The position numbers were made by a program, and so were the translations under genes. The notes under the pieces are model-generated. The model did not search any database. It saw nothing but the letters and a program-made list of their open reading frames with translations, and had not been told where the DNA came from. From IMG/VR virus record IMGVR_UViG_2537561977_000030, positions 1 through 24,811 of that record: a stretch of 24,811 bases of DNA, one strand, 5' to 3'. The DNA is from a virus (Duplodnaviria > Heunggongvirae > Uroviricota > Caudoviricetes). Shown here in pieces: positions 2,198 through 24,811 of the stretch (position 1 is its first letter; each line of letters starts with the position of its first letter).

Positions 2198-2217
2198 AAG
2201 GCCCGATATCGGGCCTT
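2198..2217. terminator. Bidirectional hairpin between convergent U' and U genes
   Basis: Perfect 20-bp palindrome AAGGCCCGATATCGGGCCTT, flanked by an A-run on one side and a T-rich stretch on the other, at the centre of the invertible segment. Confidence 0.5.
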
Positions 2218-2220
2218 GTT

Positions 2221-2754: not shown

Positions 2755-2756
2755 CG

Positions 2757-4045
2757 TTAAATACTCCCCGCGTTATACCACGTCCCATTAATGCAATACT
2801 GAATTGGCCTTGCCTGTGTTGTATCAATTAATTCATCACGGTTTCCGTTAACTGAACCCGTAACGACATAACCTGACCTGTCAGACCATCCGGGACCATT
2901 CCATGTCTGAACAGATGACAGACCGCCCAGGCGAATACCTGTAATAAACCTTGAGTTACATTCTGCCTGCGTGTATGCACCAACATCTCCCGCTGATGGC
3001 TTACGTGTTGTGGTGTAGAATTCTGACCAGTCAGCCTCAAATCCATAACCATCACGCGCTGAACGATAAAAAATACCGCCGTTCTTATAATTCACACGGA
3101 ACTGTACGGCAGGGCAACTCCCCGTATTCATATTGAAGTGGAGTATTAATGCTGTTGCGCCTTTGATATCTGCATCATAAACACCGCTATTCCAGTTCCA
3201 GCCAACAGCTTTATCATTTGCAACCCTGCTTCCTGTTTGCCCTAAAGCAAATGCAGGCTGCTGGTTTTTCGTGTTGTAGTCTCGTCGCCAGCCAGGAGCG
3301 TAAGCATCACCATGATTAATATAGGTGAATTGAGCGTTAGTGATTCCGCCGCCGCTGGACGTGCCCGGCGTGGTAACGCGTATGGTCATTGCGCCACGAG
3401 TGCCAGTAACTTCCACAACAGCACCTGCAAGACAAATATTTCCGCAACCTGTATCTGTAATGACCTTATTATTTGCATAAGCCCATGAGCCTTTGCACAT
3501 CCAGTAAGGATGGTTAAATGCCCCCTGACTCTCCAGCCACGAAATAAATTGCGCAGTTGTCCAGACCTGACTATCGCCACCAATATCCACCCATGCGCTA
3601 TATGCGCGACAGGCACCAATATTTTTGGTGAAGGTATCTTTTCCTGGAATATCTGCGCCGTTCTGGTTTTTCTGTAATGCGCCAGAAGCCTGATTTATCG
3701 CTTCCTGTAAACCAAGGTTTTTGACAAACAGCGCAGGATCAGGAATATCTGCGCCGTTCTGGTCTTTAGCCAGCTTTTCCGCCAGCTTGTTCAGTACCGT
3801 AGTCGCAAAGTTTGGATCATTACCGAGAGCGTCAGCCAGCTCTTTAAGCGTATCCAGTGTCTCAGGGGCGCTGCCTGCAAGTGCCGCAAGTGCTTTGGCC
3901 ACAAACTCCGTTGTCGCCAGCTTTTTGCTGTTATCGCCATTTGCAGGTGTAGGTGCTGTTGGTGTGCCGGTGAATGCCGGACTGGCTTTCTGTGCGTACC
4001 GGGTATGCGGGTCTGCTGCCGCGATGTGTTTCGCAAGGTCAGCCC
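2757..4045 (-). pseudogene. Tail-fibre gene, C-terminal portion (constant part to 3716, variable Sv part 3715-2757), severed from its start by the IS
   Basis: Translation has tail-fibre hallmarks (GADLAKHIAAADPHTRYAQKASPAFTGTPTAPTPANGDNSKKLATTEFV...NLGLQE...INGTWYNAGSI). The ORF in the track (2757-4169) takes its first 41 codons from inside the IS. Confidence 0.8.
3702..3727. other. hix/gix-like 26-bp recombination site B inside the tail-fibre ORF
   Basis: TTCCTGTAAACC AA GGTTTTTGACAA closely resembles hixL (TTCTTGAAAACCAAGGTTTTTGATAA) and encodes N-L-G-L-Q-E on the minus strand. Confidence 0.75.
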
Positions 4046-5339
4046 CTGAGGAATCCCCAGAAAACAAGACAGGCATAGTGAGATGTGATCTAATTGATTG
4101 TGCTAACAATTTCAAGGAGATCACCACTATGCCTGCACGTTCATTATGCCAAAATTTCCTTAACAACATACTGGCCCCTTTGCATCTTTACCGTCAAAAA
4201 TCACTGATTGACGCAACTAATGCTGTAATAAATGGCGCTTCCCTCACACTTACCAGTATCGGGCGTCATTTAACCGGTACGGCATCAGTTAAAAACAAAA
4301 TAAAGCGGGTGGATCGACTGTTGGGGAATCGACATTTGCAAAATGAGGTTTCCACCATTTTTCAGCGAATTACCCAAAAGATTACGCGGGGAATGTCTCG
4401 TGTTGTGATACTCATTGACTGGAGTGCTTATCATGCCTCTCGTTTTCAGCTTTTGCGGGCAAGCCTGGCATGTGACGGGCGTTCTTTACCGTTGATGAGT
4501 TGTGTCGTTCCATCATCACAGACAGCGAATGCAGATGTACATGAGCGTTTTCTGGAATCGCTTGCTGAGTGCTTTTCCCCCGGGACTGATGTCATTGTTA
4601 TTACAGATGCCGGTTTTCAGGGGCGATGGTTCCAACAGCTCCGCTCCCGTGGCTGGACCTATATTTGCCGGGTACTGGGCAATCATTATTACAATGTTGG
4701 TAATGGCTGGGAAAAGGTGTCGGACTCAGGCACAAAAGCATCAACGACAGCAATTTATTTAGGTGAAGGCCTGCTGGGTCGAGATAAAAATGCACAACAT
4801 GAAGGGCATTTTTATCTTTATAAAAGTAAGCCTAAAGGTCGTAGATTTAAACGCTCGAAGGAAAGAGCAACCAGACCATCGGTGACGGCTAAAGCTCGTA
4901 CTGCCGGGAAATCACCATGGTTTATTTTCACAAACAGTACTGAGTTCTCGCCAAAACAGGTAATGAAATTATACAGCCGTAGAATGCAAATTGAGCAAAA
5001 TTTCAGGGATGAAAAAAATCCTCGCTGGGGATTTGGACTACGGTTTGGTGCCAGTCATTCATCCGGGCGGGTCACGGTATTGAGTCTGATCGCAACATTA
5101 GCCAGTATCATTATGTGGTTAAGCGGTTTCAGCCTGGAAAACAAAGGGATACATCATAAATATCAGGCAAATACAGTGAAGCACAGGCGAGTCATCTCGT
5201 TATTAAAACTGGCGGAGAATGTGATTCGACATTCTCCACTCATACTAAACACACTGTCACTTGACGCAGGGCTGAAAGTTCTACAGCAACGGTATACCAA
5301 TATGATAATGGTTTACTAAATTTTCTGGGGATCCCTCAG
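4046..5339 (+). mobile_element. IS4-family (IS10-group) insertion sequence, about 1.29 kb
   Basis: 19-bp terminal inverted repeats CTGAGGAATCCCCAGAAAA (4046-4064) and, reverse-complemented, CTGAGGGATCCCCAGAAAA (5321-5339). Flanked by direct repeat AGGTCAGCCC (4036-4045 and 5340-5349). One transposase ORF. Confidence 0.85.
4129..5319 (+). CDS. IS10-like DDE transposase (396 aa)
   Basis: ATG at 4129 preceded by AAGGAGA. Translation aligns with remembered IS10 transposase blocks (KRVDRLLGNRHL..., IVITDAGF..., YSRRMQIEQNFRDEK...). The upstream part of track ORF 3721-5319 is a read-in artefact. Confidence 0.85.
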   Translation: MPARSLCQNFLNNILAPLHLYRQKSLIDATNAVINGASLTLTSIGRHLTGTASVKNKIKRVDRLLGNRHLQNEVSTIFQRITQKITRGMSRVVILIDWSAYHASRFQLLRASLACDGRSLPLMSCVVPSSQTANADVHERFLESLAECFSPGTDVIVITDAGFQGRWFQQLRSRGWTYICRVLGNHYYNVGNGWEKVSDSGTKASTTAIYLGEGLLGRDKNAQHEGHFYLYKSKPKGRRFKRSKERATRPSVTAKARTAGKSPWFIFTNSTEFSPKQVMKLYSRRMQIEQNFRDEKNPRWGFGLRFGASHSSGRVTVLSLIATLASIIMWLSGFSLENKGIHHKYQANTVKHRRVISLLKLAENVIRHSPLILNTLSLDAGLKVLQQRYTNMIMVY

Positions 5340-5506
5340 AGGTCAGCCCCGCCTTTTTCAACCTGTTGCTTCAGGTACAGCGTGCGGCTGGCCAGTTGTT
5401 TACCCTGACGGTTAGAAATTCCGTCAGGTCCGCCCAGAACGGGGTCAGAGACCTCAATCTGGTAGATGCCGTTTTCCCACTGCGGGGTTTCGGGTAGATT
5501 TGCCAT
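5340..5506 (-). pseudogene. Tail-fibre gene, N-terminal fragment (about 55 codons) separated by the IS
   Basis: ATG at 5506 follows the gpI-like stop by 2 nt and reads MANLPETPQWENGIYQIEVSDPVLGGPDGISNRQGKQLASRTLYLKQQVEKGGAD. Removing 4046-5349 rejoins it in frame with 2757-4045. Confidence 0.75.
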
Positions 5507-5508
5507 AA

Positions 5509-7521: not shown

Positions 7522-7553
7522 GGGGGGCAGTATTGCCCCCGGAAGGGAACGCC

Positions 7554-7574
7554 GATATTAAAGGCGTTTAAGAA
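7554..7574 (-). promoter_or_regulatory. Conserved 21-bp motif, copy A (candidate activator-dependent late promoter)
   Basis: GATATTAAAGGCGTTTAAGAA on the plus strand is 19/21 identical to 13346-13366. On the minus strand it reads TTCTTAAACGCCTTTAATATC, containing a TAATAT -10-like hexamer with no good -35. Confidence 0.4.
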
Positions 7575-7577
7575 ATC

Positions 7578-8090: not shown

Positions 8091-8106
8091 TTTTTCTTCT
8101 CCTTAA

Positions 8107-9240: not shown

Positions 9241-9443
9241 GGGGCAATATCCTCTTCTGTGCGGGCATCTTCAGCCTCAATAACCGGGATCAGTAACAAC
9301 ACCCCGGAGGGCAGCACCGGCGTAATGGCCACGTGCGGATTGGCGGCAATAATCCGGGGATAGCCCAGCGGGTCACCGTAGTACTGCCATGCCAGCGAAT
9401 CCCAGCGCTCTCCGTCACGGGTAATATGTTCAAGAAACATCAC
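9228..9443 (-). CDS. Tail protein X (small, LysM-like)
   Basis: 71-aa ORF between the U-like and D-like genes, overlapping both. Confidence 0.6.
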   Translation of the reverse strand: MMFLEHITRDGERWDSLAWQYYGDPLGYPRIIAANPHVAITPVLPSGVLLLIPVIEAEDARTEEDIAPWLR

Positions 9444-10324
9444 ACACTCCTCGTCAGTATTCTGGCGGCCATTGCACTTAATCCCGGAGACATGCGGTTG
9501 AATGCTGTGCCAGCGGCGTTAAGCTGCCCGGAAACGGTATCCAGAGCACCTGCAATATTTCTTTTGTCCACACCACTCAGCGCAGACTGCGCTTGCTGTA
9601 CATACGTGGCTGCCTCACTGGCTGTTCTGGCCAGACTGATGGCTTCGGGCATGGATTCAGAGAGTGCATTAAATGCCGGAACACTTTTCCCCAGAGCTCC
9701 GGATATATTACCCAGTCCGCTCATCAGTCCCGGCACACGGGTCAGTGCGACAACGGGGTTACCCTTCATTTTCTGCGCCACCCGAACAGCACTGATAGTG
9801 GTCTGGAGTACAGACTGCGCCTGTTTCGCACAGTTGACGCCGTTACGGACGAACTGCGCCACCCCGGAAGGCGATGGAACAGCACCAGATACGGCCCCGG
9901 CACCGGGAACCTGCCTGCGTATTGCCGGCGGTTGCAGAGGATTTTTCGGGTCACCGGTGTATTCCCGGAGAGACACGGTGGCACTGACAGCCAGCACGTT
10001 ACCGGTGCTGTCTGTCTGCTCACTGGTTGCGGTCACATCGGTAATCACGAACCAGCCGCGATAGTCACCGTTGCCGAAGACCAGTGCCAGTGCCTGATGG
10101 GCCTTCATGGCTGTTCGCACTCTCGCCAGCTCCACGTCGGGCACACAATAATGCTGATGGAAGACCAGGCTTATCTGGATTTCGTCCAGCCTGTCGCCGA
10201 CGAACTGCAGGCCGGGTTTACCCCCGATGCGGGCATGCTCCGCATAATCGACGCCGGACGTGGCCTCGAAGCCGTCCCAGTAGGTAATCAGCTCAAACTC
10301 AATATCACCCAGTACGGCAAACAT
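9440..10324 (-). CDS. Tail protein (P2 gpU-like / Mu N DNA-circulation N-terminal type)
   Basis: 294 aa; N-terminal FAVLGDIEFEL...RIGGKPGLQFVGDRLDEIQISL... resembles the gpU family. Start shares a base with the tape-measure stop. Confidence 0.55.
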   Translation of the reverse strand: MFAVLGDIEFELITYWDGFEATSGVDYAEHARIGGKPGLQFVGDRLDEIQISLVFHQHYCVPDVELARVRTAMKAHQALALVFGNGDYRGWFVITDVTATSEQTDSTGNVLAVSATVSLREYTGDPKNPLQPPAIRRQVPGAGAVSGAVPSPSGVAQFVRNGVNCAKQAQSVLQTTISAVRVAQKMKGNPVVALTRVPGLMSGLGNISGALGKSVPAFNALSESMPEAISLARTASEAATYVQQAQSALSGVDKRNIAGALDTVSGQLNAAGTAFNRMSPGLSAMAARILTRSV

Positions 10325-12801: not shown

Positions 12802-12876
12802 AGTGGTTAACCTCCGGGGAAGGTGAAAAGACGTGGGGGGATAACGCAGAACAGCCGCTGCTGGCGGCTGTCTGTA

Positions 12877-13134
12877 CTATGATTTGTCGCCGTACTCGCT
12901 TCTGATTTGCTCTTCAGCCTGCTCCAGCCACATCTCCAGATCGTCAGTATCGAGGGCATCAATCTCCCCCGGCTGAAACCTGAACCACCTTGCCAGCAGC
13001 CCCTGCGCCTGCGTCAGCGCCTTCGTTGCTCTCACCCATCCCCGTGACGAGCTGAAATCGTTTCTGCAACTGCAGGTAATCAGCCAGGTCCATATTGTCG
13101 AGATCTTCCGGGAGAAGACCAGTACTGCGGGCAA
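12877..13134 (-). CDS. Frameshift-extension ORF of the tail assembly chaperone (E'-like)
   Basis: Overlaps the chaperone ORF in the +1 (equivalently -2) frame and ends just before the tape measure, the position conserved for chaperone frameshift products. Confidence 0.5.
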   Translation of the reverse strand: MPAVLVFSRKISTIWTWLITCSCRNDFSSSRGWVRATKALTQAQGLLARWFRFQPGEIDALDTDDLEMWLEQAEEQIRSEYGDKS

Positions 13135-13294
13135 TCAGCGGTTCGTCCCAGTCAGCCGGGTTTTTGCTGATTTTACGTACTTGCTTCAGGTCTTTGACCG
13201 TCAGACGTTTCAGTTCAACCAGCTCAATTCTGGTGCCTGCAGCAGTGGTGAAGGGATAAGACAGCGTAAAAATATCGGATGAGGTCTGTGACAT
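12959..13294 (-). CDS. Tail assembly chaperone (P2 gpE / Mu gp41-like)
   Basis: 111-aa acidic ORF directly upstream of the tape measure; AGGAG 7 nt before the ATG. Confidence 0.65.
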   Translation of the reverse strand: MSQTSSDIFTLSYPFTTAAGTRIELVELKRLTVKDLKQVRKISKNPADWDEPLIARSTGLLPEDLDNMDLADYLQLQKRFQLVTGMGESNEGADAGAGAAGKVVQVSAGGD

Positions 13295-13345
13295 GATGTG
13301 CTCCTGTGTAAGTTCAGGGCAGTATGTCGGGAGAAGCGCGTGACG

Positions 13346-13366
13346 GATATTAAAGGAGATTAAGAA
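13346..13366 (-). promoter_or_regulatory. Conserved 21-bp motif, copy B (candidate late promoter upstream of the chaperone gene)
   Basis: GATATTAAAGGAGATTAAGAA; on the minus strand it follows the hairpin at 13371-13384 and precedes the chaperone ATG by about 50 nt. Confidence 0.4.
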
Positions 13367-13370
13367 GAAG

Positions 13371-13384
13371 GGGCCGGAGCCCCT
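13371..13384 (-). terminator. Hairpin followed by a T-rich tract on the minus strand, downstream of the 73-aa ORF
   Basis: GGGGCCGGAGCCCC has a 5-bp GC stem and is followed on the minus strand by TTCTTCTT. Confidence 0.4.
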
Positions 13385-13390
13385 GTGATG

Positions 13391-13612
13391 TCAGCAAGTG
13401 CGAAAACCCTTGCAGTTACGCAGGAAAGCGATGAGAAGCGTCTTTCCCTCCGCTTTGCCTGTGCCGGAGAACCAGTGGTCGGGCGGCTCCCATGCTTCAA
13501 TCAAATCGGCCAGTTTGCGGGCCTTTGAACGTGTGCAGTCAATCGGGTCATTGGTTTTACGGGTGTTACCCCCCGGAATATCAAGGAGGGTAAACCACGT
13601 ACCATTTGACAT
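13391..13612 (-). CDS. Hypothetical 73-aa protein between tail tube and chaperone (possible moron)
   Basis: ORF only; weak ribosome-binding site; has its own downstream hairpin; sits where this tail-module layout normally has no gene. Confidence 0.35.
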   Translation of the reverse strand: MSNGTWFTLLDIPGGNTRKTNDPIDCTRSKARKLADLIEAWEPPDHWFSGTGKAEGKTLLIAFLRNCKGFRTC

Positions 13613-13663
13613 GCCCGGTGACGCACAGCGCCCCCCCTTTGTCAGTCAGTTCAACGCTCACCG

Positions 13664-14185
13664 TCAGCCCCCGATATTGATACGGTAGTCAGTCAGCTGG
13701 TCAACGCCACCGACCCGGAAGATGTTGGCCAGATAGTCCAGTTGCAGCAGCTCTTCACCATCCAGTACCTGTCTGATATACGTGCAGGTGAAGCTACTGG
13801 AGAACTCGGCGTTCTCGTGCTGTTTGAACGTCCCCAGCGGGTTCTTCTTGAACATAATCGTCAGGAAGGTGACCAGCGGGATTTCGTCGATCAGCCCCTG
13901 CGAACTGTAGCGCTGGACGCTTGAGCGACACTGCAGCGCCAGCGACCTGTACGGGTTCGCGGCAGACAGCATCGCATCGCGGTAAAAGCTGTTCCATTTG
14001 ATTTCGCCTTCCAGTTTGTCAAAACCAGCCGGGAGTTCCACCTTACCCACCATCCCCAGTGCCTTGTGTTCCTGCATAATCATGGAGACATCGGGGAGTT
14101 TAACTTCCTCAGCCCGTCCCAGCAGGTTAGTACCATCCAGATAGATGTTGGCATTCGTGATTCGGTTTATCTCAATCTTTGACAT
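13664..14185 (-). CDS. Tail tube protein (Mu gpM / P2 FII-like)
   Basis: 173-aa ORF immediately after the sheath gene; start shares a base with the sheath stop. Confidence 0.8.
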   Translation of the reverse strand: MSKIEINRITNANIYLDGTNLLGRAEEVKLPDVSMIMQEHKALGMVGKVELPAGFDKLEGEIKWNSFYRDAMLSAANPYRSLALQCRSSVQRYSSQGLIDEIPLVTFLTIMFKKNPLGTFKQHENAEFSSSFTCTYIRQVLDGEELLQLDYLANIFRVGGVDQLTDYRINIGG

Positions 14186-15618
14186 CAGTTGCCCCCTTTC
14201 AGGGTTAACAGGTATTCCGAGGTGATCTCCGTCTCATACGTCAGCCGCTCCAGCGGTGGCGGCGGCGTGTATTTGTAGCTCAGCAACAGGTGACCGGCGG
14301 CCAGCTCCGTCTCCGGATTGCGGGCCGGATCAAACCAGCAACGGAAGCCCAGTACCGCACCATCACCAGTCATTTTGCGACCGTAGGCGTTGACCGACTC
14401 CGTCAGTGCATCAATCAGCGCCTGAGTAATCGGCATGTCGATGTACTGCTGGCTGAAGTAACGAATGGACTCGTTGATCACATCACCGGTGCGGCGAACG
14501 TTCTCAAAGTTACGCATATGGGTGACCGTTGGCCATGCTGCCGTCCGGTTACCCCACAGACGAAGGCCGCTGCCGTAACTGCTGAATACCGTGGTGATCC
14601 CCTGTTCGTTAAGCAGGTTCACCTCGCTCTGCGGATCGTCAATCATTGCCGACAGCTGGCGCTCCACGCCGGTGATCCCCAGAATTTCCTGATTGGAGGA
14701 TGACCACCAGTACCCTTTGTCCAGGTCGACTCTGGCACGCAGGCCCGCCGCACGCTGGCTCAGTGGCTCCAGACGCTCCGTGTTTGTCACCGGGTCATAT
14801 ACCTTCACATGCGGGTAGCACAGGCGGACACGGTCAGAGCTGGTATTGAAATTAATGGTGCCTTCCGGGCCACGTCCCGCCAGAGCCTGCGCAAAAGTGG
14901 TACCAACCGGCGCATCAATATAGGTTACTGCTCCCAGTTTCTCAGCCATGGCGATAAGCTCAACCGAGACGCTGTTCTGGGTGCAGAATACCGGCGCAAT
15001 CAGGATTTTGGCGAAGTAGCCAAACAGGTTAAAACTGTCGTTAAGCAGCTTCATGCCGGTACGGTTGCCCGCCGCGTTAACGGCACCGATGATATCAGCC
15101 GGGGTGACTCTGGTCGGATCAGCATAGTTATAGCTGGCCTTCACCGTTGCATCTGCAGCAATGCTTTTACCCAGGTTAGTAATCACCCCGGTCTGTGCAT
15201 CAAGCGAGTAGTCCTGACCTTCAACATAAGGCTGACCGTCGCTGTCCGGTTTCAGTACCAGCTGCGCGACCACCGGATTAGCCAGCCGGGCTCTGCCTGT
15301 CGCCTTGTCGAACGACACATTCTCACTGACCACAGCGGTTTTATGCACAGACGGATCGAGTACGTTAATGACCAGAACGGTGCCTGCACCATGGTCATAA
15401 ATCGCATCCAGCGCCTGCGGAATGGTAAAGCCGTTGAACTGGCTGCCAAATGCTGCAGCGTCTTTCTCAGACAGGCACTGTACCAGCGTATTGACATCCC
15501 CCATTGGTGCGGTACCAATCAGGCCAATAACGGCAGATTTCACCGTTTTAACCGGGCGGGCACCGTTTTCCACTTCAATGGTTTCGGGACCATGCAGATA
15601 GTTAGCTGACATGGGCAT
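14185..15618 (-). CDS. Contractile tail sheath protein (Mu gpL / P2 FI-like)
   Basis: 477-aa ORF with sheath-like sequence, upstream of the tube gene. Confidence 0.85.
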   Translation of the reverse strand: MPMSANYLHGPETIEVENGARPVKTVKSAVIGLIGTAPMGDVNTLVQCLSEKDAAAFGSQFNGFTIPQALDAIYDHGAGTVLVINVLDPSVHKTAVVSENVSFDKATGRARLANPVVAQLVLKPDSDGQPYVEGQDYSLDAQTGVITNLGKSIAADATVKASYNYADPTRVTPADIIGAVNAAGNRTGMKLLNDSFNLFGYFAKILIAPVFCTQNSVSVELIAMAEKLGAVTYIDAPVGTTFAQALAGRGPEGTINFNTSSDRVRLCYPHVKVYDPVTNTERLEPLSQRAAGLRARVDLDKGYWWSSSNQEILGITGVERQLSAMIDDPQSEVNLLNEQGITTVFSSYGSGLRLWGNRTAAWPTVTHMRNFENVRRTGDVINESIRYFSQQYIDMPITQALIDALTESVNAYGRKMTGDGAVLGFRCWFDPARNPETELAAGHLLLSYKYTPPPPLERLTYETEITSEYLLTLKGGN

Positions 15619-15856
15619 CCTCCGTTTTCACCTCGCTGTCACCGCCGTTCCTGCGCTTTGGTGACTGCACAGCCGGTGTGCCGGCGGGTTTAGTTTCTTC
15701 AGATACCGGCGTCAGATGCTTCAGCGCCACCAGTACCTTCACGTAGTCATGCTCCTCCGGCAGGGAAACAGTCTTCCCCGGCCAGAGCAGGATTTCGGTT
15801 CCGTCCGACAGCGTGACGCCGCTGGCCGGGCCGGAATAGCGGTATTCTTTCATCAC
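15602..15856 (-). CDS. Hypothetical small protein (head-tail joining region)
   Basis: 84-aa ORF overlapping its neighbours in operon fashion. Confidence 0.5.
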   Translation of the reverse strand: MMKEYRYSGPASGVTLSDGTEILLWPGKTVSLPEEHDYVKVLVALKHLTPVSEETKPAGTPAVQSPKRRNGGDSEVKTEDAHVS

Positions 15857-16317
15857 TCGCTTTCCTCATAGTTCACTTCGGTTAACAGCGGGCCGGACGG
15901 TAAATCGCTGTCTTCGATAAAGACGCTTTCAGTCGCGAAGTCGAGGGCGTATTGCCAAAGCCCCCTGACTTCACCGATAAACACCTCGCGGGTCAGCCAG
16001 ATACGGCGGCGGCAGCCGGGCGGAGTGTGGCCACCGAGAATGCGGCGGACAGCATCCAGGACATTAATCGCCCCTTTTTTACCGTTGAGCTGGCGGAAGA
16101 CCACCGTGACGCAGAGCTGGATAGTCTGAGGCTGGATCACCGCACCGGTATCATCCGGCCTGTCGAAACGCGATCCTGCATAGCTCAGCAGCAACGCCCC
16201 GACAGAATGATTGAGGCGATATTCGGACGGCTTTTCCGGGAAGTACTCAACCTGCAGCTGAGGCAGCTTCTCGCGTAACCGGGCCAGTACCGCATCAAGG
16301 ACGGGCAGAACATTCAT
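15853..16317 (-). CDS. Mu gp37-like protein (DUF1834-type)
   Basis: 154-aa ORF in the position of Mu gp37, overlapping neighbours. Confidence 0.55.
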   Translation of the reverse strand: MNVLPVLDAVLARLREKLPQLQVEYFPEKPSEYRLNHSVGALLLSYAGSRFDRPDDTGAVIQPQTIQLCVTVVFRQLNGKKGAINVLDAVRRILGGHTPPGCRRRIWLTREVFIGEVRGLWQYALDFATESVFIEDSDLPSGPLLTEVNYEESE

Positions 16318-16763
16318 CAGTATTTCTCCAGTAAGCCGTCACGACCGCCGAAAGTGGCCGGGCGGCTGCGTACACGAAACTCTCCTGGCTCAGGCACATC
16401 TTTCTGAGTGGACGGCAGCCCCAGCGTAAGCCTGTTATCACGTAACTCCTTCAGTTGCCGCAGCGCTTCTTTGTGGTCATCCTTCACCGTATCCGGGAGG
16501 TCACCTTCCGGGCGGCGGGCGTAGAGCCGGTAACGGACCAGCGTGATGGCAATGTCCCGCAGAACGGTCGGTATCTCCGCCAGCGGCAGGATATAGCGTC
16601 CGCGCAGATGGGCATCAATCAGCTCGTCGGCATAGCGGATACAGCTCTCCACCACACGGGTATTCACTGTCGCAGGCGAGTCGAAGTCCATCTCTTCACT
16701 GGTGAGCTCGATCAGCGTTCGTTCCGGCACCTGCTCAAGCAAATCCTCCAGGGTGCAGTACAT
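16317..16763 (-). CDS. Mu gp36-like protein (DUF1320-type)
   Basis: Starts at the ATG at 16763 (MYCTLEDLLEQ...), 1 nt after the upstream gene's stop. The longer track ORF to 17033 overlaps the upstream gene and is rejected. Confidence 0.6.
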   Translation of the reverse strand: MYCTLEDLLEQVPERTLIELTSEEMDFDSPATVNTRVVESCIRYADELIDAHLRGRYILPLAEIPTVLRDIAITLVRYRLYARRPEGDLPDTVKDDHKEALRQLKELRDNRLTLGLPSTQKDVPEPGEFRVRSRPATFGGRDGLLEKY

Positions 16764-16764
16764 G

Positions 16765-17103
16765 TCACACCCCGCGCAGGATACGAATGACGTCGCCTTC
16801 ACCCCCGGCTTCATCAAGTGCAATACCACAGGATTTACCGTCGCCGGACTGCGGCACGGCTCTGGCCTGAGCATCTGACTGAACAGCCACACCACTGCTG
16901 ACCGCAGCACCGGCCTCAACAGCAATAATGCCCAGAACGCTAACCGGCGTACTGTCGCCGGTAACAGCATCCACTTCGGCAACCCCGAGCGCTGCGGCAC
17001 CGGCTTTACAGGGGGTATTATCTGCCCCGACAAAACGCTGCTGTGCCAGTTCTGCCCCTGCCGTTACGGTTGTGATCAGAATGACCTGCTGAGTGGTTCC
17101 CAT
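16765..17103 (-). CDS. Small Ala/Gly/Val-rich head protein (DUF2190-like, possible decoration protein)
   Basis: 112 aa; strong Shine-Dalgarno TAAGGAGG 4 nt before the ATG; composition typical of DUF2190-type proteins. Confidence 0.5.
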   Translation of the reverse strand: MGTTQQVILITTVTAGAELAQQRFVGADNTPCKAGAAALGVAEVDAVTGDSTPVSVLGIIAVEAGAAVSSGVAVQSDAQARAVPQSGDGKSCGIALDEAGGEGDVIRILRGV

Positions 17104-17112
17104 AACGCCTCC

Positions 17113-17484
17113 TTATTTACTGATACCGGTGATGAGATACCCGGCATCGCCACCCACCACGGCGACTTTGTAGATATCGGTATAACGGCAGTACTTCACC
17201 TTGCCGCCGGCCCCGTCGTATTTGTCTGCAACAGGCATCCCCTTACGACGCAGGGTGTAGCCGAAGGACGGCTCGTTCTCGTCCGCGCTGTCCGCCCCGA
17301 CGGCACGCTCGGTGTCATATTCCACAAAGGCGGTTTTTCCGAAGGTCGGTACACGCACGCCTTCCTTGTCCGTCAGCACGACGGGGAAAATACGTTCGCC
17401 GATGAATGCAGCATTTTTATAGCCACGGGCGATACTGGTCAGTACCGGATCAACGACACGTTTACCTTTTAAGTAATCAGACAT
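17113..17484 (-). CDS. Hypothetical 123-aa head-region protein
   Basis: ORF between the protease/scaffold and the DUF2190-like gene; no family recognised. Confidence 0.45.
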   Translation of the reverse strand: MSDYLKGKRVVDPVLTSIARGYKNAAFIGERIFPVVLTDKEGVRVPTFGKTAFVEYDTERAVGADSADENEPSFGYTLRRKGMPVADKYDGAGGKVKYCRYTDIYKVAVVGGDAGYLITGISK

Positions 17485-17498
17485 GCTCTCTTCTTAAA

Positions 17499-18614
17499 TT
17501 ACAGGCAGCGTGCGACAGCAGCCTCATAGCTGATGCCTTCTTTTTTCGACAGGGCCACTGCTTTCTGATGCAGGGCCAGACGCTCAGGATCGGCTTCCGC
17601 AAACTCCGCCACATCCACCTTCACCGCGTCGCCGACACGATCCTTTGTGGCCTGTTCGGCGAAGTTCATCACCGGCTCCCCGTCGGAGAGCAATGAACGG
17701 AAGGCGGTGGCCAGCGGTGTGCGGCTTTCCCCCTCAGCAAACTCCACCGGCTTGTCGCCACCGGCGACGGCATCCAGCAGGGCAACCACCACGGAGGAGG
17801 CGCGGGGAGCCAGACGACCCTCTGCGACCAGTTTTTCTGCAAAGGCCACATTGTCCTTATGCAGTTGCTCCTGTCTGGCCTGTGCATCACGCGCATCGCG
17901 ATCAGCAGCCTGCTGCTTCAGGTGGCGGTTCTCCTCCTGAAGGGCTTCAATCTCTTCTTTTGTCATCGATGATTCCTCGTTACTTGCGGAAGACGGCACA
18001 TGGCCTGTCTCACTGAATTGCGCACCTGCTGCATCCTGCGACGGTGTGTCGCGGTACGCCTCTTCGCGCAGACTGTTGAGCTGCCATTCCGGCAGGACTT
18101 TTTCTGCCTCGTCCAGACTGAAGCGGGCGATCAGAAAATCGCGCAGCTTTCCCCACAGTGAGGCATTCGTGATGGCCTGCCAGTCGGCGAACTCCACCAC
18201 ACCTTCTTCCTGCTCACTGAAGGACACCTGTTTCAGCCCTTTGACGGAAGGTGGCTGTGCCCCGAGAAAGCCCACATGGCGCAGGTAGAGTACGCCGGGC
18301 TTCGGATTGGACGGTGAATCCGGGAGGTAAAAAGAGGCGGACACTTTTTTGAATCGTCCGTCGGTGACCATCTCAGCAAACTGCGGGTCCAGTTGGGCAG
18401 GCTCTGCCATCAGATCGACGCCGCTGAGCGACAGGGTTTTCACCCAGCCCCACGCCGGGTCTTCCGTTCTGGGATGACCAATCACGAGTGGTGCTTCATG
18501 GACGGACGGGTCATAGGCTTTCACGCAGGCGGCAAGATCGTCTGGCGTGAACGGCAGTTTTTTGCCGTGCATATCGGTATGAGTACCGGCTTTAAAAATG
18601 TGAATGGCTGACAT
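17499..18614 (-). CDS. Head maturation protease/scaffold (Mu gpI-like)
   Basis: 371 aa; an N-terminal protease-like domain and a charged coiled-coil C-terminal half (EEIEALQEENRHLKQQAADRDARDAQARQEQ) typical of scaffolds. Confidence 0.65.
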   Translation of the reverse strand: MSAIHIFKAGTHTDMHGKKLPFTPDDLAACVKAYDPSVHEAPLVIGHPRTEDPAWGWVKTLSLSGVDLMAEPAQLDPQFAEMVTDGRFKKVSASFYLPDSPSNPKPGVLYLRHVGFLGAQPPSVKGLKQVSFSEQEEGVVEFADWQAITNASLWGKLRDFLIARFSLDEAEKVLPEWQLNSLREEAYRDTPSQDAAGAQFSETGHVPSSASNEESSMTKEEIEALQEENRHLKQQAADRDARDAQARQEQLHKDNVAFAEKLVAEGRLAPRASSVVVALLDAVAGGDKPVEFAEGESRTPLATAFRSLLSDGEPVMNFAEQATKDRVGDAVKVDVAEFAEADPERLALHQKAVALSKKEGISYEAAVARCL

Positions 18615-18828
18615 TTTGCTGTCCCGCGTTATGTTGTCGGAGACAGTTTGTGAGAAATGCAGGCCCGGCGATTTTAATCTGCTTTAGAAAACATCAGGGG
18701 AGAAGGACAGGGAAAGCAATGCGGTGAACCGGAGGCGGTTATAAAACAGAGGCTGTAAAGCCTTTATAAAGGTAATACAGCCCCTCAGTTGCTGGCAATG
18801 ATAAATCACCCGCCTGAAGGGAGAAACC

Positions 18829-19287
18829 TCAGCGACGGGCCGCTGATTCAAGATGGCGGACAATGGTATCGAGGATGGGGATTACCACTTCAGGCTGTAG
18901 TTCTCCATCCCCCGTCACCGGCAGGAACGGGCGGGCCGGAAGTTCAACGGACTCATTACGCCCCGTTTTACCCCCGAACTGGTGAATGGCACCGTAAACA
19001 ACGTTGGTCCCCACAACAGCCTGCCGGTCGTCATGGTCGGTTGATACTGACCCCATCAGACGCCCGGTATCCTGCAGTGTCTGTCCGTCACGTTCTTCCG
19101 CTGCCAGCGAGGGCATCCACCCCGGACGCCCCTCATCAAGAAAGTTAAACTGTGTTTCCGCCAGCAGGGTTCCGGCGATTTTGCGCATCGCGGGCTCCAT
19201 GTCTGTGGCAGCAAGATCCAGCGCACGGAGGCTCCGGCGCAGGGAGTCATCGTTAATGGAGATACTGACCAGATTGTCGGAAGCCAT
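18829..19287 (-). CDS. Virion morphogenesis protein (Mu G-like)
   Basis: 152-aa ORF directly downstream of the F-like gene; size and position match Mu G. Confidence 0.6.
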   Translation of the reverse strand: MASDNLVSISINDDSLRRSLRALDLAATDMEPAMRKIAGTLLAETQFNFLDEGRPGWMPSLAAEERDGQTLQDTGRLMGSVSTDHDDRQAVVGTNVVYGAIHQFGGKTGRNESVELPARPFLPVTGDGELQPEVVIPILDTIVRHLESAARR

Positions 19288-19289
19288 TG

Positions 19290-20111
19290 TTATCCTCTCA
19301 GTTCCTGTTGTGCCAGTGGCTGAAGCGTACCCTGATAGCGGGCAAGGTCGGGACGGTATGCTGCCCCCGGTGCATAAGACCAGCCGACGTCGGTGGTCAC
19401 CTTCGTGGTGCCGGTATTAAAGGTGGCCACGTTCCGCATTTCGCCGGTTTTCTCTGAGACCAGTTTCAGTTCATGGCCCATGGCAGAGCCGGAGCTGATA
19501 ACCTTCAGGCCACGGGCACGTACATCCGCCGCACTCAGGGCAATCACACTACAGCGGCAGCGCCAGCCGTTCGGCGGGTAAAATGCCTGCCAGAACGGGT
19601 CATCCCAGCGCAGCACCAGACCATGCAGCGCCAGATGGCTCCTGCGGGTATGGCTGTCGTTGATGCCGGTATACATCCAGTACGGCCTGTCGTCGACGTT
19701 TTCCATCTGTTCCGCCCAACGACCGGCGCTGTAGAGTACGGACATATTGGTGCGAAAGATGGTATCGAGCCGCCACGAACTGCCCTGCTGAATGGTGACC
19801 GGCTCACCCGTTACCGGGTCAGTCGTGTCACTCGGTCCCCACCATCCCCTGCGCTTCAGCGCCGGCTCCAGCTCCTGCCGGAACCAGCGATCGGTTTTTC
19901 CTTCATCGACAGCCTGCTGCAGTGTCCCACGAATATCTTCCAGGATATCCAGGCGGGTCACTTTAGCGACGGTAAAGGCGCGGGCATGGGCTTCCTGCCA
20001 CATTTCTTCCCAGTCCCAGGTAATCTGATACCCTTTGGACTTCAGGTAGCTGATTGCCCGCTTCGGGGGAAGCGTCATGCAGTACGCCAGTTCAGCCGTT
20101 GTCACGCTCAT
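19290..20111 (-). CDS. Head morphogenesis protein (Mu F / SPP1 gp7 family)
   Basis: F-family-like sequence. Likely ATG at 20111 with a GGGGG ribosome-binding site; the track start at 20138 is TTG. Confidence 0.75.
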   Translation of the reverse strand: MSVTTAELAYCMTLPPKRAISYLKSKGYQITWDWEEMWQEAHARAFTVAKVTRLDILEDIRGTLQQAVDEGKTDRWFRQELEPALKRRGWWGPSDTTDPVTGEPVTIQQGSSWRLDTIFRTNMSVLYSAGRWAEQMENVDDRPYWMYTGINDSHTRRSHLALHGLVLRWDDPFWQAFYPPNGWRCRCSVIALSAADVRARGLKVISSGSAMGHELKLVSEKTGEMRNVATFNTGTTKVTTDVGWSYAPGAAYRPDLARYQGTLQPLAQQELRG

Positions 20112-21108
20112 GCAGACGCCCCCAGATATTTGCCACAAAGAGAATGCGGGCCAGCCGTTCCTGCAGATCGTCCGTGTTCATCTGAGGGTAGAGCTCCGCC
20201 AGTTCGCCCAGCAGCTCAGACGGGTTAACCCCATTTTCGACCCGCTTAAACAGAGGTGCCAGGACGGGTTCCAGCGTGCCATTTAACGCGCCTCCGTTCA
20301 TCAGAATGTCCAGCGCGTCGTCAAGCTGCTGCTGAGCCTGAATATCGGCATCAATCGCCTCGGCAAATGACAGCGGCAACATGTTCTTCTCGCGTTCTGA
20401 CGGTGGTGTCTCGTCAATATCGCCGTCCTGCAGCTGGTACTCACGCTTAAAGTATTGCGGGGTCAGACGCAGACCCGCCCGGGTGAGTTTTTCGTCGCGG
20501 GTGGCACGGGTGTCATCAATGGCCTCCTGTTCCCACATGGCCCAGACCGGACACGGCACATCGCCGAAGTTCAGGGTGACCACCGTTCTGATGACCTGAT
20601 TCACTGCCGCCTGAATGATGTCCGCATCCGCATCGCGGATATCAGCCGTTACCTCCAGCCCGGCCTGTGCAGAGGCCTTGTTACTGTTCGCTTCCGTGGT
20701 CTGATTCTGACCGAGTAATGCAATGGAGATCTCACTGCGTGACAGCGTGATCAGCTCGCGGAATACCTCGCTGCTGTCCGCCTTGCCATCCGCGGCTTTG
20801 AGTTCGATGCTGCTGTCATCGGGGATGGCGGCCACCGCGTCCTCCACCATCTGCTCCATGGAGTCCAGCAGTTTTTCAATCTCTGCATCATTTGCACCCC
20901 TCGGGTGCTTACCGATCACCCACGGGGAGCCAAACTTTTCGGCAAAGCGGAGCCAGAATTTCATCCCGCCTTTCTTGAAGGCGACCGGCCAGAAGCACAT
21001 GGACAGATCCGGAAAACCGTAAGGATTGTCATAGGATGCATCCTGTGCCGGCACCACGAATTTTGACGGTGACAACAGCTCACCCTCCACACCCGCATCA
21101 CGTGCCCG
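20092..21108 (-). pseudogene. Portal protein (Mu gp29 / DUF935-type), N-terminally truncated remnant
   Basis: About 335 codons where DUF935 portals run about 500. An in-frame stop lies immediately upstream at 21109-21111, and there is no credible start or ribosome-binding site. Confidence 0.65.
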
Positions 21109-21145
21109 TCATGGAATTCTCCCGCCCTGACAGGGAGGACTCGCA

Positions 21146-21418
21146 ATGATTACCCCACAGGAAGCACGACAGCGCACCCGAACCCTTGTTGAACACTATG
21201 TCAACGAGTGTGAATACCGCGACCTCACCGATGTGAAGCACGTCCTGACGGCGCTAATCAGCATGGCCGCTCAGGCCATTGTGGCGACCAACGGAAAGGC
21301 GGCTGCCCTGCAGGTACTGGTGAACACACTCACCCACACGGCAGAGCATGAGGTGCCGTACCGGATGGAAACCACTGCAGAAGGCGGCCTGCACATCACC
21401 GTCAGCCGGAAGCACTGA
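21146..21418 (+). CDS. Hypothetical 90-aa protein
   Basis: ATG preceded by GGGAGG; first gene of a plus-strand operon. Confidence 0.55.
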   Translation: MITPQEARQRTRTLVEHYVNECEYRDLTDVKHVLTALISMAAQAIVATNGKAAALQVLVNTLTHTAEHEVPYRMETTAEGGLHITVSRKH

Positions 21419-21427
21419 GGGCGCGGC

Positions 21428-21724
21428 ATGACACGAAACACCGAACTCACCCGCACCGCCCTCTACCGTCTGGCCCTGCAGCGTTTCGGGCCGGACGCAC
21501 AGGCCCTGAAACTGACAGAAGAGGCCGCTGAACTGGCGGCCAGTGCTGCCCGCAATCTGAACGGACAGGGCAGCGAAAGTGACCTCGCGGCAGAGCTGGC
21601 AGACGTGGAAATCATGACAGAGCAACTGCGCCTTCAGGGGATGGACCGGCTGATTGACTTCCACAAACAGAAAAAACTGGAACGTCTGGCTGCACGACTG
21701 GGCGTGATTTACACGAACGAGTAA
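21428..21724 (+). CDS. MazG-like nucleotide pyrophosphohydrolase (small, phage type)
   Basis: 98 aa with an EEAAELAASAA...ELADVEIM arrangement matching the EExxE...ExxD metal-binding pattern of the MazG/HisE-like fold. Confidence 0.55.
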   Translation: MTRNTELTRTALYRLALQRFGPDAQALKLTEEAAELAASAARNLNGQGSESDLAAELADVEIMTEQLRLQGMDRLIDFHKQKKLERLAARLGVIYTNE

Positions 21725-21738
21725 CCGGGAGGCATTCA

Positions 21739-21955
21739 ATGGCTGACATACTCAGGGAAATCACCGCATGGACACTGATTCTTACTGGCCTGGCGACATG
21801 CCTCAGTACGGGGGGCAGCCCTGGCTGCCCTGCTGATGCACATAACAACACAGTGGTTATGGGAAAAGCTTAAAGCAGCATACAGCCTGAAAGAGCTGTC
21901 CGACGCTGTCCGGGCATGGAAACGGCAGAAAAATACCGGAGATACTGAACAATGA
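21739..21955 (+). pseudogene. Small membrane-protein gene apparently frameshifted at a G6 run
   Basis: ATG at 21739 with a GGGAGG ribosome-binding site reads MADILREITAWTLILTGLA... The downstream frame, which ends in a TGA overlapping the next gene's ATG (ATGA), is reached by removing one G from 21810-21815. Confidence 0.35.
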
Positions 21956-22635
21956 CAGATCAGAATAAACACATTGAGAAACTGAAAAAGTTGCTGGCGC
22001 TGGCTGCATCCGGCAACCCGCACGAGGCCGCTCTTGCACTGCGCCGTGCCCGTAAACTGATGGATGTTCACGGCATCACACATTCCGACATAGCCATGAG
22101 TGATATTGATGAAACCATCAGTCACTACTGGCCGACAGGCAGCCTCCGTCCACCGCGCTACATGCCAGGCCTGATGAACATCATCCGCGAGGCATTTGGT
22201 GTTAACTCCATCATTCACCCCGGCACATATCCGGGTGTGGGGTTCTACGGCAACCGGGAACGGGCCGCACTGGCTGCGTACACCTGGGAGGTGCTGGCCC
22301 GCCAGTTGAAAAAGGCGCGTCAGCAATATATCAGCGCACAGAACAAAAGAATAAAAACTGCCACCCGTACCAGCCGTGGTGACCAGTTTGCTGAAGGCTG
22401 GGTGCTGGCCGTTATCAGTGAAATACAGTCCTTCGCCCTGACCGATGACGAACGTGAACTGATGCAGCAGTGGCTGGAACATAAATACCCGCAAACGCAA
22501 ACCACCAGGGCGCGTAAACCGGGAAGAAGTCGCAATGGCGACGCCTCGCGCTATGCGGGGTTTCGTGAAGGGCAGAACGTCAGACTGCACCGCCCGGTCA
22601 GTGGGCAGGAACAACAGAAACTGGAGGCCAGATGA
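21952..22635 (+). CDS. DUF2786-like domain protein
   Basis: 227 aa; N-terminal KHIEKLKKLLALAASGNPHEAALALRRARKLM motif as recalled for DUF2786; ATGA start overlap with the upstream gene. Confidence 0.5.
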   Translation: MTDQNKHIEKLKKLLALAASGNPHEAALALRRARKLMDVHGITHSDIAMSDIDETISHYWPTGSLRPPRYMPGLMNIIREAFGVNSIIHPGTYPGVGFYGNRERAALAAYTWEVLARQLKKARQQYISAQNKRIKTATRTSRGDQFAEGWVLAVISEIQSFALTDDERELMQQWLEHKYPQTQTTRARKPGRSRNGDASRYAGFREGQNVRLHRPVSGQEQQKLEAR

Positions 22636-22862
22636 TTACGCTATCAGGTAACAGCCGGAAATTAAAAGCCTGCCGAATATCTGCCAGATACCTTTTTGCC
22701 CGCGCCTTTTTTAAGAACGTCAGGCCGGGGATCACAATTGGTGTTATTGCCGGACGCGAACAGGTTGAAAAATACATGTCAGGTGCATGGTGGAATAACG
22801 ACCCTGTCATTGCTGCCCGTAATATTCATATCAGTTGGGGGGATATTCAGAATGACTGCTGA
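22632..22862 (+). CDS. Hypothetical 76-aa protein
   Basis: ATG overlaps the upstream stop (ATGA). An alternative frame (22696-23067) overlaps, so the assignment is uncertain. Confidence 0.35.
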   Translation: MITLSGNSRKLKACRISARYLFARAFFKNVRPGITIGVIAGREQVEKYMSGAWWNNDPVIAARNIHISWGDIQNDC

Positions 22863-23067
22863 ATCTGTTGTATGTGCCCTGTTCTGGTATTGTTTTGTCG
22901 GTTGGTGTACTGCTGAACTGCACCGCCGTTCAGGGTTTTATTCACGTTACAGTGGTGCCAGCTACTGGATTAGCTGGTCGGTGATGTTCCTGTGCTGGCC
23001 TGTGGCGCTTCCTTTATATGTCGATTATATCGGTGGCGCAGGTAAAAGGAGCAACGATGATGACTAA
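22852..23067 (+). CDS. Small membrane protein (71 aa, two predicted transmembrane segments)
   Basis: ATG at 22852; hydrophobic stretches VVCALFWYCFVGW and WISWSVMFLCWPVALPL. Confidence 0.4.
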   Translation: MTAESVVCALFWYCFVGWCTAELHRRSGFYSRYSGASYWISWSVMFLCWPVALPLYVDYIGGAGKRSNDDD

Positions 23068-23509
23068 ACAACGTCTTATCCAGCTCATTCATATTGCCCG
23101 TAATGAACTGGGTATGGATGAAGACACCTACCGCCAGATGTTACAGGGGCTGACCGGTAAAGCCTCAACCAAAGGAATGGATACCACACAACTAAACTGC
23201 GTGCTGGAATCCATGAAAAGGAAAGGCTTTCGCGTTAAGCCTGCCGGAAAAGCCAGCTCCGGTTTACCGCTGGATAACCATCCGCAGTCCAGGAAAATCC
23301 GTGCGCTATGGCTTGAAATGGCTGCTGCCGGCATTGTTCGTGACCGTTCAGAAAATGCATTAGCGCGGTGGATCAAGCGGGAAACGGGCATCAGCGCCCT
23401 GCGCTGGCTCAATACTGAACAGGCAAGCAGTGTTATTGAGAAACTGAAGAAGTGGCAGCACAGAGCTGCGGGAGTAAAACATGAGCGACCTGAATCAGTT
23501 TCGAAGTAA
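23057..23509 (+). CDS. gemA: GemA-like protein (Mu gp16 family, DUF1018)
   Basis: MMTKQRLIQLIHIARNELGMDEDTYRQMLQGLTGKAS...MKRKGF...SRKIRALWLEMAAAGIVRDRSENALARWIKRETGISALRWL matches the gp16 family pattern; AAAGGAG before the ATG. Confidence 0.75.
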   Translation: MMTKQRLIQLIHIARNELGMDEDTYRQMLQGLTGKASTKGMDTTQLNCVLESMKRKGFRVKPAGKASSGLPLDNHPQSRKIRALWLEMAAAGIVRDRSENALARWIKRETGISALRWLNTEQASSVIEKLKKWQHRAAGVKHERPESVSK

Positions 23510-23867
23510 AGGGCCGGAACTCCTGGTGGAGCTGGCACAGCATACCTCTGAGACCGTTCGCGAGATTATTGATATTGAGCCCGAAGTTGCCGACCAGATT
23601 GGTCAGGCCGTCGCGAACCGCATGATGCAGGTCTGGGGCGGGCAAAACGTTTATTTTCCTATGGGGATGAGATGGAAGATAAGCCAGCGTGACCGTGAAA
23701 TCTATGAGGCGTTTAACGGACGTAACCACCACGAACTGTCCCGCAGATTCAGGGTTTCAGTTCCCTGGATTTACAACCTGGTGAAGCGCGTAAGAAAGGA
23801 AGAAATCAGCCGGTTGCAGGGGCAGTTATTCGAAGACGATGATGAACCGGATGACAGCCGGGATTAA
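23481..23867 (+). CDS. mor: Mor/C-family transcriptional activator (Mu middle operon regulator-like)
   Basis: 128 aa; C-terminal GGQNVYFPMGMRWKISQRDREIYEAFNGRNHHELSRRFRVSVPWIYNLVKRVRK matches the Mor/C helix-turn-helix region; directly follows the gemA-like gene, as in Mu. Confidence 0.8.
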   Translation: MSDLNQFRSKGPELLVELAQHTSETVREIIDIEPEVADQIGQAVANRMMQVWGGQNVYFPMGMRWKISQRDREIYEAFNGRNHHELSRRFRVSVPWIYNLVKRVRKEEISRLQGQLFEDDDEPDDSRD

Positions 23868-23931
23868 TCAAAAGCGAGGTGATAATGCGCTATAAAACCC
23901 CCAACAGCGCCCCCCCTGAAGAAGGCAGACC

Positions 23932-24123
23932 ATGCAGATATGGCGATGGAAATTATCCGGCATTTTTTTTGACGGTCTGACTTCTGCTGAGGCGAGATAT
24001 GTTCTCCGGGAATGCGACAGGCTGATTGACAACTCGCGCCTGCATATCGGGCCTGATGAAAATTGTGTTTTGTATTACGGGAAAGTTTTACGTAACCCAC
24101 CACCACCGCCACCAAAGTGTTAA
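23932..24123 (+). CDS. Hypothetical 63-aa ORF ending in a proline run
   Basis: ORF only; region contains C7 and T8 homopolymers and a second short ORF from 23886 in another frame. Confidence 0.25.
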   Translation: MQIWRWKLSGIFFDGLTSAEARYVLRECDRLIDNSRLHIGPDENCVLYYGKVLRNPPPPPPKC

Positions 24124-24153
24124 CGAACGTCAATAAATTCCCGGTTTATGAAA

Positions 24154-24184
24154 AGCGCAATGGATAACCTGTTGCGCTTTTTTT
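24154..24184 (+). terminator. Rho-independent terminator
   Basis: Stem AGCGCAA...TTGCGC with an 11-nt loop, followed by a T7 run. Confidence 0.65.
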
Positions 24185-24217
24185 ATTCTGGCAGAAAAAC
24201 ATATCACCGGAGGAAAT

Positions 24218-24811
24218 ATGTTTGATGCATCCTTGCTGAATCTGCCATGGGCAACGCTGGTGACGCTCACCAGTGGTTATATCGGCTATTTTATTGCGAA
24301 CGTGGGGCTGAAGAACCATCACAAACCCATTGAGGTGACGTTTTCGACGCTGATTTTTGGTTTGCTGTCAATGATGGTTTACCAGGCTGTTATGTGGGCA
24401 GGTCTGAATTCGTGGCTGGCGACACCTCCAACACTTCTTTGCGCTTTTGCATACGCTGCATTATGGAGAAAATATGGGCGTAAATGGATGTACAGATTCC
24501 TCAGAAATAAGGATATATCATGGTCTGATGATACCCCCTCTGCCTGGATGCGTATGTTTGATCAACATGGATACTATATCAGCGAGGCGTATGTCTATCT
24601 GAAGAATGGTACTGTGCTGCTTTCTGAAAATCCGGGGAAATTTGAAGGCCAGGCCAGCGGTTCTTTTGTGTTAGGAGTGGAAAAAGACATAGTGATGTAT
24701 GTCACTCATGAAAAAAACCGGGGCGCGATGAATGGATTGAAAAAGATGTTGAAAGTAAAAGCTGGGGAGCGATGGCAACCTATATCCCTGCAGATCAGAT
24801 TGCCATGGTGA
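24218..24811 (+). CDS. Hypothetical membrane protein (197 aa; N-terminal transmembrane helices plus soluble C-terminal domain)
   Basis: GGAGGA ribosome-binding site before the ATG; hydrophobic N-terminus; stop is the last codon of the window. Confidence 0.6.
   Translation: MFDASLLNLPWATLVTLTSGYIGYFIANVGLKNHHKPIEVTFSTLIFGLLSMMVYQAVMWAGLNSWLATPPTLLCAFAYAALWRKYGRKWMYRFLRNKDISWSDDTPSAWMRMFDQHGYYISEAYVYLKNGTVLLSENPGKFEGQASGSFVLGVEKDIVMYVTHEKNRGAMNGLKKMLKVKAGERWQPISLQIRLPW

Follow-up and report, generated by a model that had tools for sequence, protein, structure and literature searches.

A defective BcepMu-type prophage of Escherichia coli with a very probable 13.4-kb internal deletion ending in its portal gene

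Genes and gene remnants at the locus

The window, as the whole stretch of 24,811 nucleotides analysed here is called, carries phage head and tail genes on its minus strand and an early operon on its plus strand (Table 1). The head block ends in a portal gene of the Mu gp29 type that has lost its beginning. The minus-strand frame ending at 20092 matches Portal_Mu (PF06074, E=7e-64) in Pfam, through profile positions 116-336 of 336 only, and in tblastn searches the 498-aa portal protein of the E. coli ZH063 prophage aligns with the window solely by residues 161-498 (21108-20095, 98.5% identity). The remnant has 338 codons left, the N-terminal 160 being deleted, and an in-frame TGA (plus-strand tca, 21109-21111) stands immediately 5' of it. 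The earliest start available within it is the GTG at 21090, which would yield 332 aa; the native start, the ribosome-binding site and the upstream late promoter are lost. A look-up of this 332-aa reading frame gave no match, because gene callers chose later starts (327 and 320 aa). An earlier, sequence-only reading of the window had described a portal gene cut to about 335 C-terminal codons, closed by a stop directly upstream and broken within the gene itself, and these points agree with the alignments, in which portal homology ends at window 21108, residue 161.

A short portal match also comes from the complete genome of E. coli IPCEC31 (NZ_AP026783.1 1112786-1113207, H59), to which, out of the query segment 20300-21900, only window 20300-20721 aligns, 422 bases lying entirely in the portal gene and annotated there as 'DUF935 family protein' and 'hypothetical protein'. 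This suggests a separate portal truncation, at another point and in another lineage.

The TGA that closes the portal frame consists of the first three bases of a second remnant, read on the minus strand. The latter is the end of a 64-aa early gene (CDS 34047-34241 in the ZH063 prophage locus, L002), which matches phrog_3401 when intact. The remnant carries the ribosome-binding site for the next gene, and its stop overlaps the next ATG (ATGA). The sequence-only reading had an operon beginning about 35 bp beyond the stop and ending in gemA and mor; it does start 35 bp on, at ATG 21146, and closes with matches to PF06252 and PF08765. The final regulatory gene, mor, lies close to the prophage end. 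Directly 5' of gemA, a small gene at 22852-23067 shares only about 40% protein identity with its ZH063 counterpart, whereas its neighbours share 95-98%; it looks like a local mosaic replacement in the early operon.

Window 1-3721 resembles the invertible G-segment tail-fibre cassette of Mu. It contains a Gin-type serine invertase (Resolvase and HTH_7), split by a frameshift into 581-240 and 252-1, as well as gix-like inverted repeats at 633-684 and 3670-3721 with the core TTCCTGTAAACCAAGGTTTT. Two opposed tail-fibre-assembly genes, at 1632-2192 (plus) and 2221-2754 (minus), lie between the alternative fibre C-termini. The tape-measure gene (10324-12801) encodes 825 aa here, 983 in locus L004 and 896 in locus L005, and is interrupted in ZH063 and PhiKM; its BLAST pieces overlap around 10573-10989, an overlap that points to internal variation in repeat number. 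An Rfam scan of the whole window gave no match.

Table 1. Features of the window, with coordinates, strand and the evidence for each
Feature	Coordinates	Strand	Evidence or remark
ISEc60 (IS4-family) in tail-fibre gene	4036..5350	plus	99.3-99.8% identical to annotated ISEc60; Pfam DDE_Tnp_1
Major head gene with 582-bp in-frame internal deletion, 123 of 317 aa left	17113..17484	minus	phrog_1005, L002 alignment
Intact head genes 3' of the portal remnant	17499..20111	minus	Pfam, PHROG, tblastn
Head maturation protease	17499-18614	minus	
Mu G-like gene	18829-19287	minus	
Mu F-like gene	19290-20111	minus	
Portal remnant (Mu gp29 / DUF935 type), codons 161-498 and stop	20092..21108	minus	Pfam, tblastn, DNA co-linear with L002 16988-20809
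Junction, single kept copy ACGTGCCCG of an imperfect 9-bp direct repeat	21100..21108	.	Alignment of relatives, megablast overlap
3' remnant of 64-aa early gene (phrog_3401), last 13 codons and stop	21109..21149	plus	Co-linear with L002 34201-34241
First intact gene past the scar, 90 aa, phrog_3691, function unknown	21146..21418	plus	95.6% identical to ZH063 homologue
98-aa early gene, nucleoside triphosphate pyrophosphohydrolase-like (phrog_2245)	21428..21724	plus	PHROG match, tblastn
71-aa early gene, frameshifted at about 21812-21819	21739..21952	plus	tblastn, one piece in each of frames +1 and +2
Early gene with DUF2786 and DUF7168 domains, 227 aa	21952..22635	plus	Pfam, tblastn
gemA homologue	23057..23509	plus	GemA PF06252, E=1.6e-40 (ORF 23018-23509); start taken from the gene call of L006, an identical locus
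mor homologue, Mor/C family transcription activator	23481..23867	plus	Mor PF08765, E=5e-41; placed as BcepMu gp01

The junction and the missing block

BLAST comparison with the ZH063 locus places the two sides of the junction on a single prophage. Window 17287-21108 corresponds to L002 16988-20809 (98.0% identity) and window 21100-22890 to L002 34192-35981 (96.7% identity); both matches have the same strand and the same order, and one contiguous block of 13,391 bp is absent from the window. Six intact relatives cover the portal-side breakpoint, and all of them read ACGCGCCCG at this site; the early-side breakpoint reads ACGTGCCCG in both relatives matched there. These two repeats agree at 8/9 positions, for which the chance in a fixed register of these sequences is about 2e-4. 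A three-way alignment leaves one ACGTGCCCG copy and no filler bases at the join, the pattern of a short-homology deletion, with a direct repeat (here an imperfect one) at both parental breakpoints and one copy kept. It is uncertain whether the crossover fell within the ACG or within the full 9 bp, because each intact relative has a one-base difference in its portal-side repeat.

The same boundary emerges from complete genomes. When the junction-spanning segment 20300-21900 was compared by megablast with 5,426 complete E. coli genomes, the match split here in all of the approximately 640 matching genomes, its left half ending at window 21108 and its right half beginning at 21100, an overlap of exactly 9 bases. 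The junction is absent from all 5,426 genomes, a result that tells us no more than that the deletion is lineage-specific. The 30-base junction had no exact match among GTDB species representatives, JGI metagenome contigs or IMG/VR viral contigs; the loci that do carry it were reached through a look-up of the window's own truncated proteins.

With high confidence, we take 21091-21145 to be the scar left when a BcepMu-type transposable prophage of E. coli lost 13,391 bp from its interior in a single deletion. This deletion would have removed the whole central regulatory region, from portal codon 160 into the 64-aa early gene, and the imperfect 9-bp repeat points to short-homology illegitimate recombination or replication slippage as the route by which the ends may have been joined. 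A transposition-mediated deletion of the Mu adjacent type is rejected since both breakpoints are internal to the prophage and neither lies at a phage end, and an IS-mediated deletion is rejected since the junction contains no IS. The search for an intact ancestor at the same chromosomal site (adjacent to gsk) found none; the intact prophages compared lie elsewhere on the chromosome, with 95-98% identity, and for this reason we can only infer the pre-deletion sequence from them.

According to the ZH063 annotation, the missing block holds on its late side portal codons 1-160, TerL, TerS and five lysis-region genes (including holin and transglycosylase). Its middle contains three small genes, dam, the repressor, two DNA-binding proteins and a 303-aa gene, and its early side transposase A, a B-like ATPase, an 89-aa gene, gam and the 64-aa gene minus its last 13 codons. 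The ZH063 transposase (L002 30173-31942) and the ExeA-family gene (31953-33119) both fall within it. The window contains neither a DDE (rve) transposase nor an ExeA/B-like ATPase, and it is therefore the non-functional remnant of a family member. Similarly, TerL, TerS, gam and portal residues 1-160 of ZH063 have no tblastn match anywhere in the window, in keeping with the earlier remark that terminase is absent from it.

Recombination between co-resident BcepMu-type prophages, or between the prophage and a superinfecting phage, would give the same product as a simple intramolecular deletion. E. coli genomes hold a median of 2 matching places and up to 6, although a lone intact prophage itself gives two, and the element is mosaic: identity to ZH063 is 98.0% left and 96.7% right of the junction, and only 40% in a 68-aa gene. 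However, the join lies in a 9-bp imperfect repeat between non-homologous genes and not in the long homology expected of an exchange between copies, and we consider such an origin very unlikely.

Further damage and the present state of the remnant

The major head gene carries a deletion as well, its residues 67-232 being missing in tblastn. Both ends of the gene match phrog_1005, as do the 123-aa remnant and the intact 317-aa ZH063 gene (L002), and the deletion junction at 17287-17298 is a perfect 12-bp repeat, GCTGTCCGCCCC. An identical 123-aa remnant occurs in loci L004, L005 and L008, which are otherwise complete-looking, about 95% identical to the window overall, and keep the 498-aa portal, terminase and lysis genes. 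The idea that this remnant is specific to the lineage with the 13.4-kb deletion was thus rejected. Because these three loci keep a full portal and terminase, the head-gene deletion is older than the 13.4-kb deletion, and the latter would have struck a prophage already defective in its head gene. A headless variant of the prophage seems to circulate or persist across several E. coli backgrounds.

The tail-fibre gene matches in tblastn through its first 56 residues only (5506-5339) and is interrupted by ISEc60, which has inverted repeats at 4043-4064 and 5321-5342 and the 11-bp direct repeat AGGTCAGCCCC at each end. The same element recurs in E. coli FDAARGOS_943 and FDAARGOS_944, where each replicon has about 36 places that match it. 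Frameshifts affect gpD (8154), the 71-aa early gene (about 21812-21819), the 210-aa end gene (24710) and the Gin-type invertase (about 250-265). Two near-identical loci, L003 and L007, are identical to the window at the site in the 71-aa gene, whereas 8154 and 24710 are the sole indel differences from them and are changes of homopolymer length (T5 vs T6, A7 vs A8). The gpD and 210-aa-gene frameshifts are suspect because they are absent from these two 99.98%-identical independent assemblies, and they may be sequencing errors of an older draft.

The sequence-only reading had taken the IS and the frameshifts as signs of a defective prophage. The IS and the frameshift in the 71-aa gene stand as such signs, while those at 8154 and 24710 are doubtful. 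The diagnosis itself is upheld by other losses: TerL, TerS, gam and portal residues 1-160 have no match, the major head gene is broken and ISEc60 sits in the tail fibre, and holin, transglycosylase, repressor and transposase all belong to the missing block.

In BcepMu-type prophages, an early operon and a late block (lysis, TerS, TerL, portal, head and P2-like tail) diverge from a central regulatory region, the early operon comprising a repressor-controlled promoter, transposase A, the B-like ATPase, gam, small genes, gemA and mor. Because transposase, B-like ATPase, repressor, lysis genes, terminase, a complete portal and the major head protein are gone, the remnant should be unable to transpose, lyse the cell, package DNA, build heads or form particles.

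The early promoter region of ZH063, between the divergent repressor and the ner/cro-like genes, falls within the deleted block. A crude promoter scan of 20500-21700 with a consensus found no sigma-70-like site, and hence no sign of a promoter made by the junction; two weak terminator-like hairpins in the same interval are no more than expected by chance. Since the regulatory region is deleted and 20500-21700 has no sigma-70-like site, the gemA-mor operon is, on these sequence grounds, probably promoterless and silent. Mor/C-family activators switch on the late genes in Mu. Internal Mor/C-dependent late promoters could persist in the remnant, and without Mor the late genes would stay unactivated.

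These considerations bear on the reading of the element as a domesticated, tailocin-like module, in which the tail would have been kept together with Mor after a selective loss of head, packaging and transposition functions. From sheath to baseplate, the tail genes retain their full length and share 90-100% identity with intact relatives (gpV 73%). Mor and GemA are undamaged too, and the remnant is near-identical across several isolates. By contrast, the lysis cassette is absent, ISEc60 interrupts the tail-fibre gene, mor has lost the early promoter expected to drive it, and the head protease, the Mu F-like and Mu G-like genes and the portal remnant are still there instead of having been cleanly removed. 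The close similarity among the copies accords with recent clonal descent rather than with selection, and we find this reading highly improbable. An R-type tailocin was rejected, the fibre being IS-interrupted, the lysis genes deleted and head genes remaining. There is just as little reason to expect that the remnant is still useful, the gemA-mor operon and intact contractile-tail genes being kept in this E. coli lineage and the deletion being a step in domestication. If this were true, Mor might, for example, drive the production of tail-like particles, a co-resident intact BcepMu-type prophage might cross-activate the remnant, or GemA might act on the host.

Family layout, lineage and meaning

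As a BcepMu-type (Bcepmuvirus-like) prophage of E. coli, the element is a non-functional member of a well-known and common family. Its closest phage match is Escherichia phage PhiKM (PQ738613; Bcepmuvirus in the taxonomy), with 90-98% nucleotide identity over window 5499-23804, and both halves of the junction-spanning segment match about 640 of the 5,426 complete E. coli genomes (about 12%) at 95-99% DNA identity. Mu-type head genes are followed by a P2-type contractile tail module. The window matches Portal_Mu, Phage_Mu_F, the phrog_976 protease, the phrog_1005 major head protein and Tail_P2_I, and the Pfam labels on the identical locus L006 add Phage_tail_S (Mu G), Phage_P2_GpU, Phage_GPD, GPW_gp25, Baseplate_J, sheath and tube. 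The plus-strand gemA and mor diverge from the minus-strand portal-to-tail genes, as they do in BcepMu, PhiKM, ZH063 and A20.

Intact relatives carry all the deleted genes and a full portal (498 aa in ZH063, 497 aa in A20). The ZH063 prophage (L002) has tail, head, the 498-aa portal, TerL, TerS and lysis genes on one strand, and dam, the divergent repressor, ner/cro-like genes, transposase, the ExeA-family B-like ATPase, gam, small genes, GemA and Mor on the other. E. coli A20 shows the same layout at another chromosomal site: the ZH063 prophage lies within ssuB of the sulfonate transporter operon (NZ_CP014522) and that of A20 adjoins dpiA (NZ_CP028755), differing sites being expected of a transposable phage. 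BcepMu itself (AY539836) has mor (gp01), gemA (gp02) and transposase (gp09) on its minus strand, and repressor (gp17), lysis genes, TerS, TerL, portal (gp29) and later head genes on its plus strand (positions 1-20000). For a 90%-identical relative of BcepMu, the published module order is replication/regulation, lysis, assembly of the head and assembly of the tail (PMC2920897).

Gene content and order of the window are thus those of BcepMu and Bcepmuvirus including PhiKM, with Mor and GemA at one end, transcribed away from the late block, and Mu-type head and P2-type tail genes. The window differs from BcepMu and PhiKM in lacking the central 13.4 kb, in the internal deletion of the major head gene and in the IS in its tail-fibre gene. 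The families of its portal, F, G, GemA and Mor proteins are homologous to those of Mu (portal gp29, GemA gp16, Mor gp17), and like Mu it has a tail-fibre segment that is invertible, together with a Gin-type serine invertase. Unlike Mu, the BcepMu type has an early block inverted relative to the late one, a P2-like tail and a transposase of the rve / Tn552 type.

The early, middle and late genes of Mu are all transcribed in one direction. From this co-directional order the sequence-only reading had concluded that an inversion or a deletion must have occurred; the deletion stands, and the inversion falls, since the divergent order is native to the BcepMu type. Mu is the wrong reference here because the layout is already divergent in BcepMu, PhiKM, ZH063 and A20. 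The rival history is a Mu-ordered ancestor in which an inversion with a portal breakpoint turned the early segment, with a deletion besides. In its favour, canonical Mu carries these genes all on a single strand, and the gemA-mor pair of the window diverges from the portal and tail genes. It is nevertheless extremely unlikely, as every close relative and the type phage BcepMu already have the divergent order, and a single intact prophage matches both sides of the junction in strand and order, which makes the extra step unneeded.

The deletion junction recurs across datasets. The window is 100% identical to part of the 462-kb contig ADUP01000053.1 of GCA_000188815.2 (L006, whose analysed stretch corresponds to window 7113-24811), and the junction 30-mer is found in three loci from separate datasets, the other two (GCA_012768515.1, L003; SRR2994196, a Logan assembly, L007) each being 99.98% identical to the window. 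A further 9 contigs, SRR23544680 among them, carry the truncated portal beside the same neighbours, with a gene call of 327 aa. The chance that a chimeric join or a collapsed contig made the junction is close to nil: ADUP01000053.1, to which the window is identical, is an older draft that differs from near-identical assemblies by homopolymer indels, but the junction lies inside that contig, away from its edges, is the same in at least three independent assemblies, GCA_012768515.1 and SRR2994196 among them, and is accompanied by the truncated portal on the nine further contigs.

By their Pfam labels, the genes that adjoin the prophage end beyond mor in these loci encode a PfkB-family kinase and a member of the Na+/H+-exchanger family; they are presumably gsk and ybaL from the gene order of E. 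coli. This is a clonal lineage with a fixed prophage remnant. As in the cryptic prophages of E. coli, essential modules were lost between short direct repeats (8/9 bp and 12/12 bp), together with an IS insertion and frameshifts; there is no difference in kind, and the particular breakpoints alone are lineage-specific. The locus is ordinary prophage decay with damage of a well-known type, not a rearranged or new kind of element.

The finding matters little beyond annotation. The proper label is a defective BcepMu-type prophage in which the portal gene (codons 161-498) and the major head gene are pseudogenes and an IS disrupts the tail fibre, and 'rearranged Mu-like phage' is the wrong label for the region. 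Expectations of gene order derived from Mu are unfit for BcepMu-type prophages, in which a divergent gemA/mor beside the late genes is normal. The nested deletions, the head gene first and the central 13.4 kb later, could be clonal markers of the lineage.
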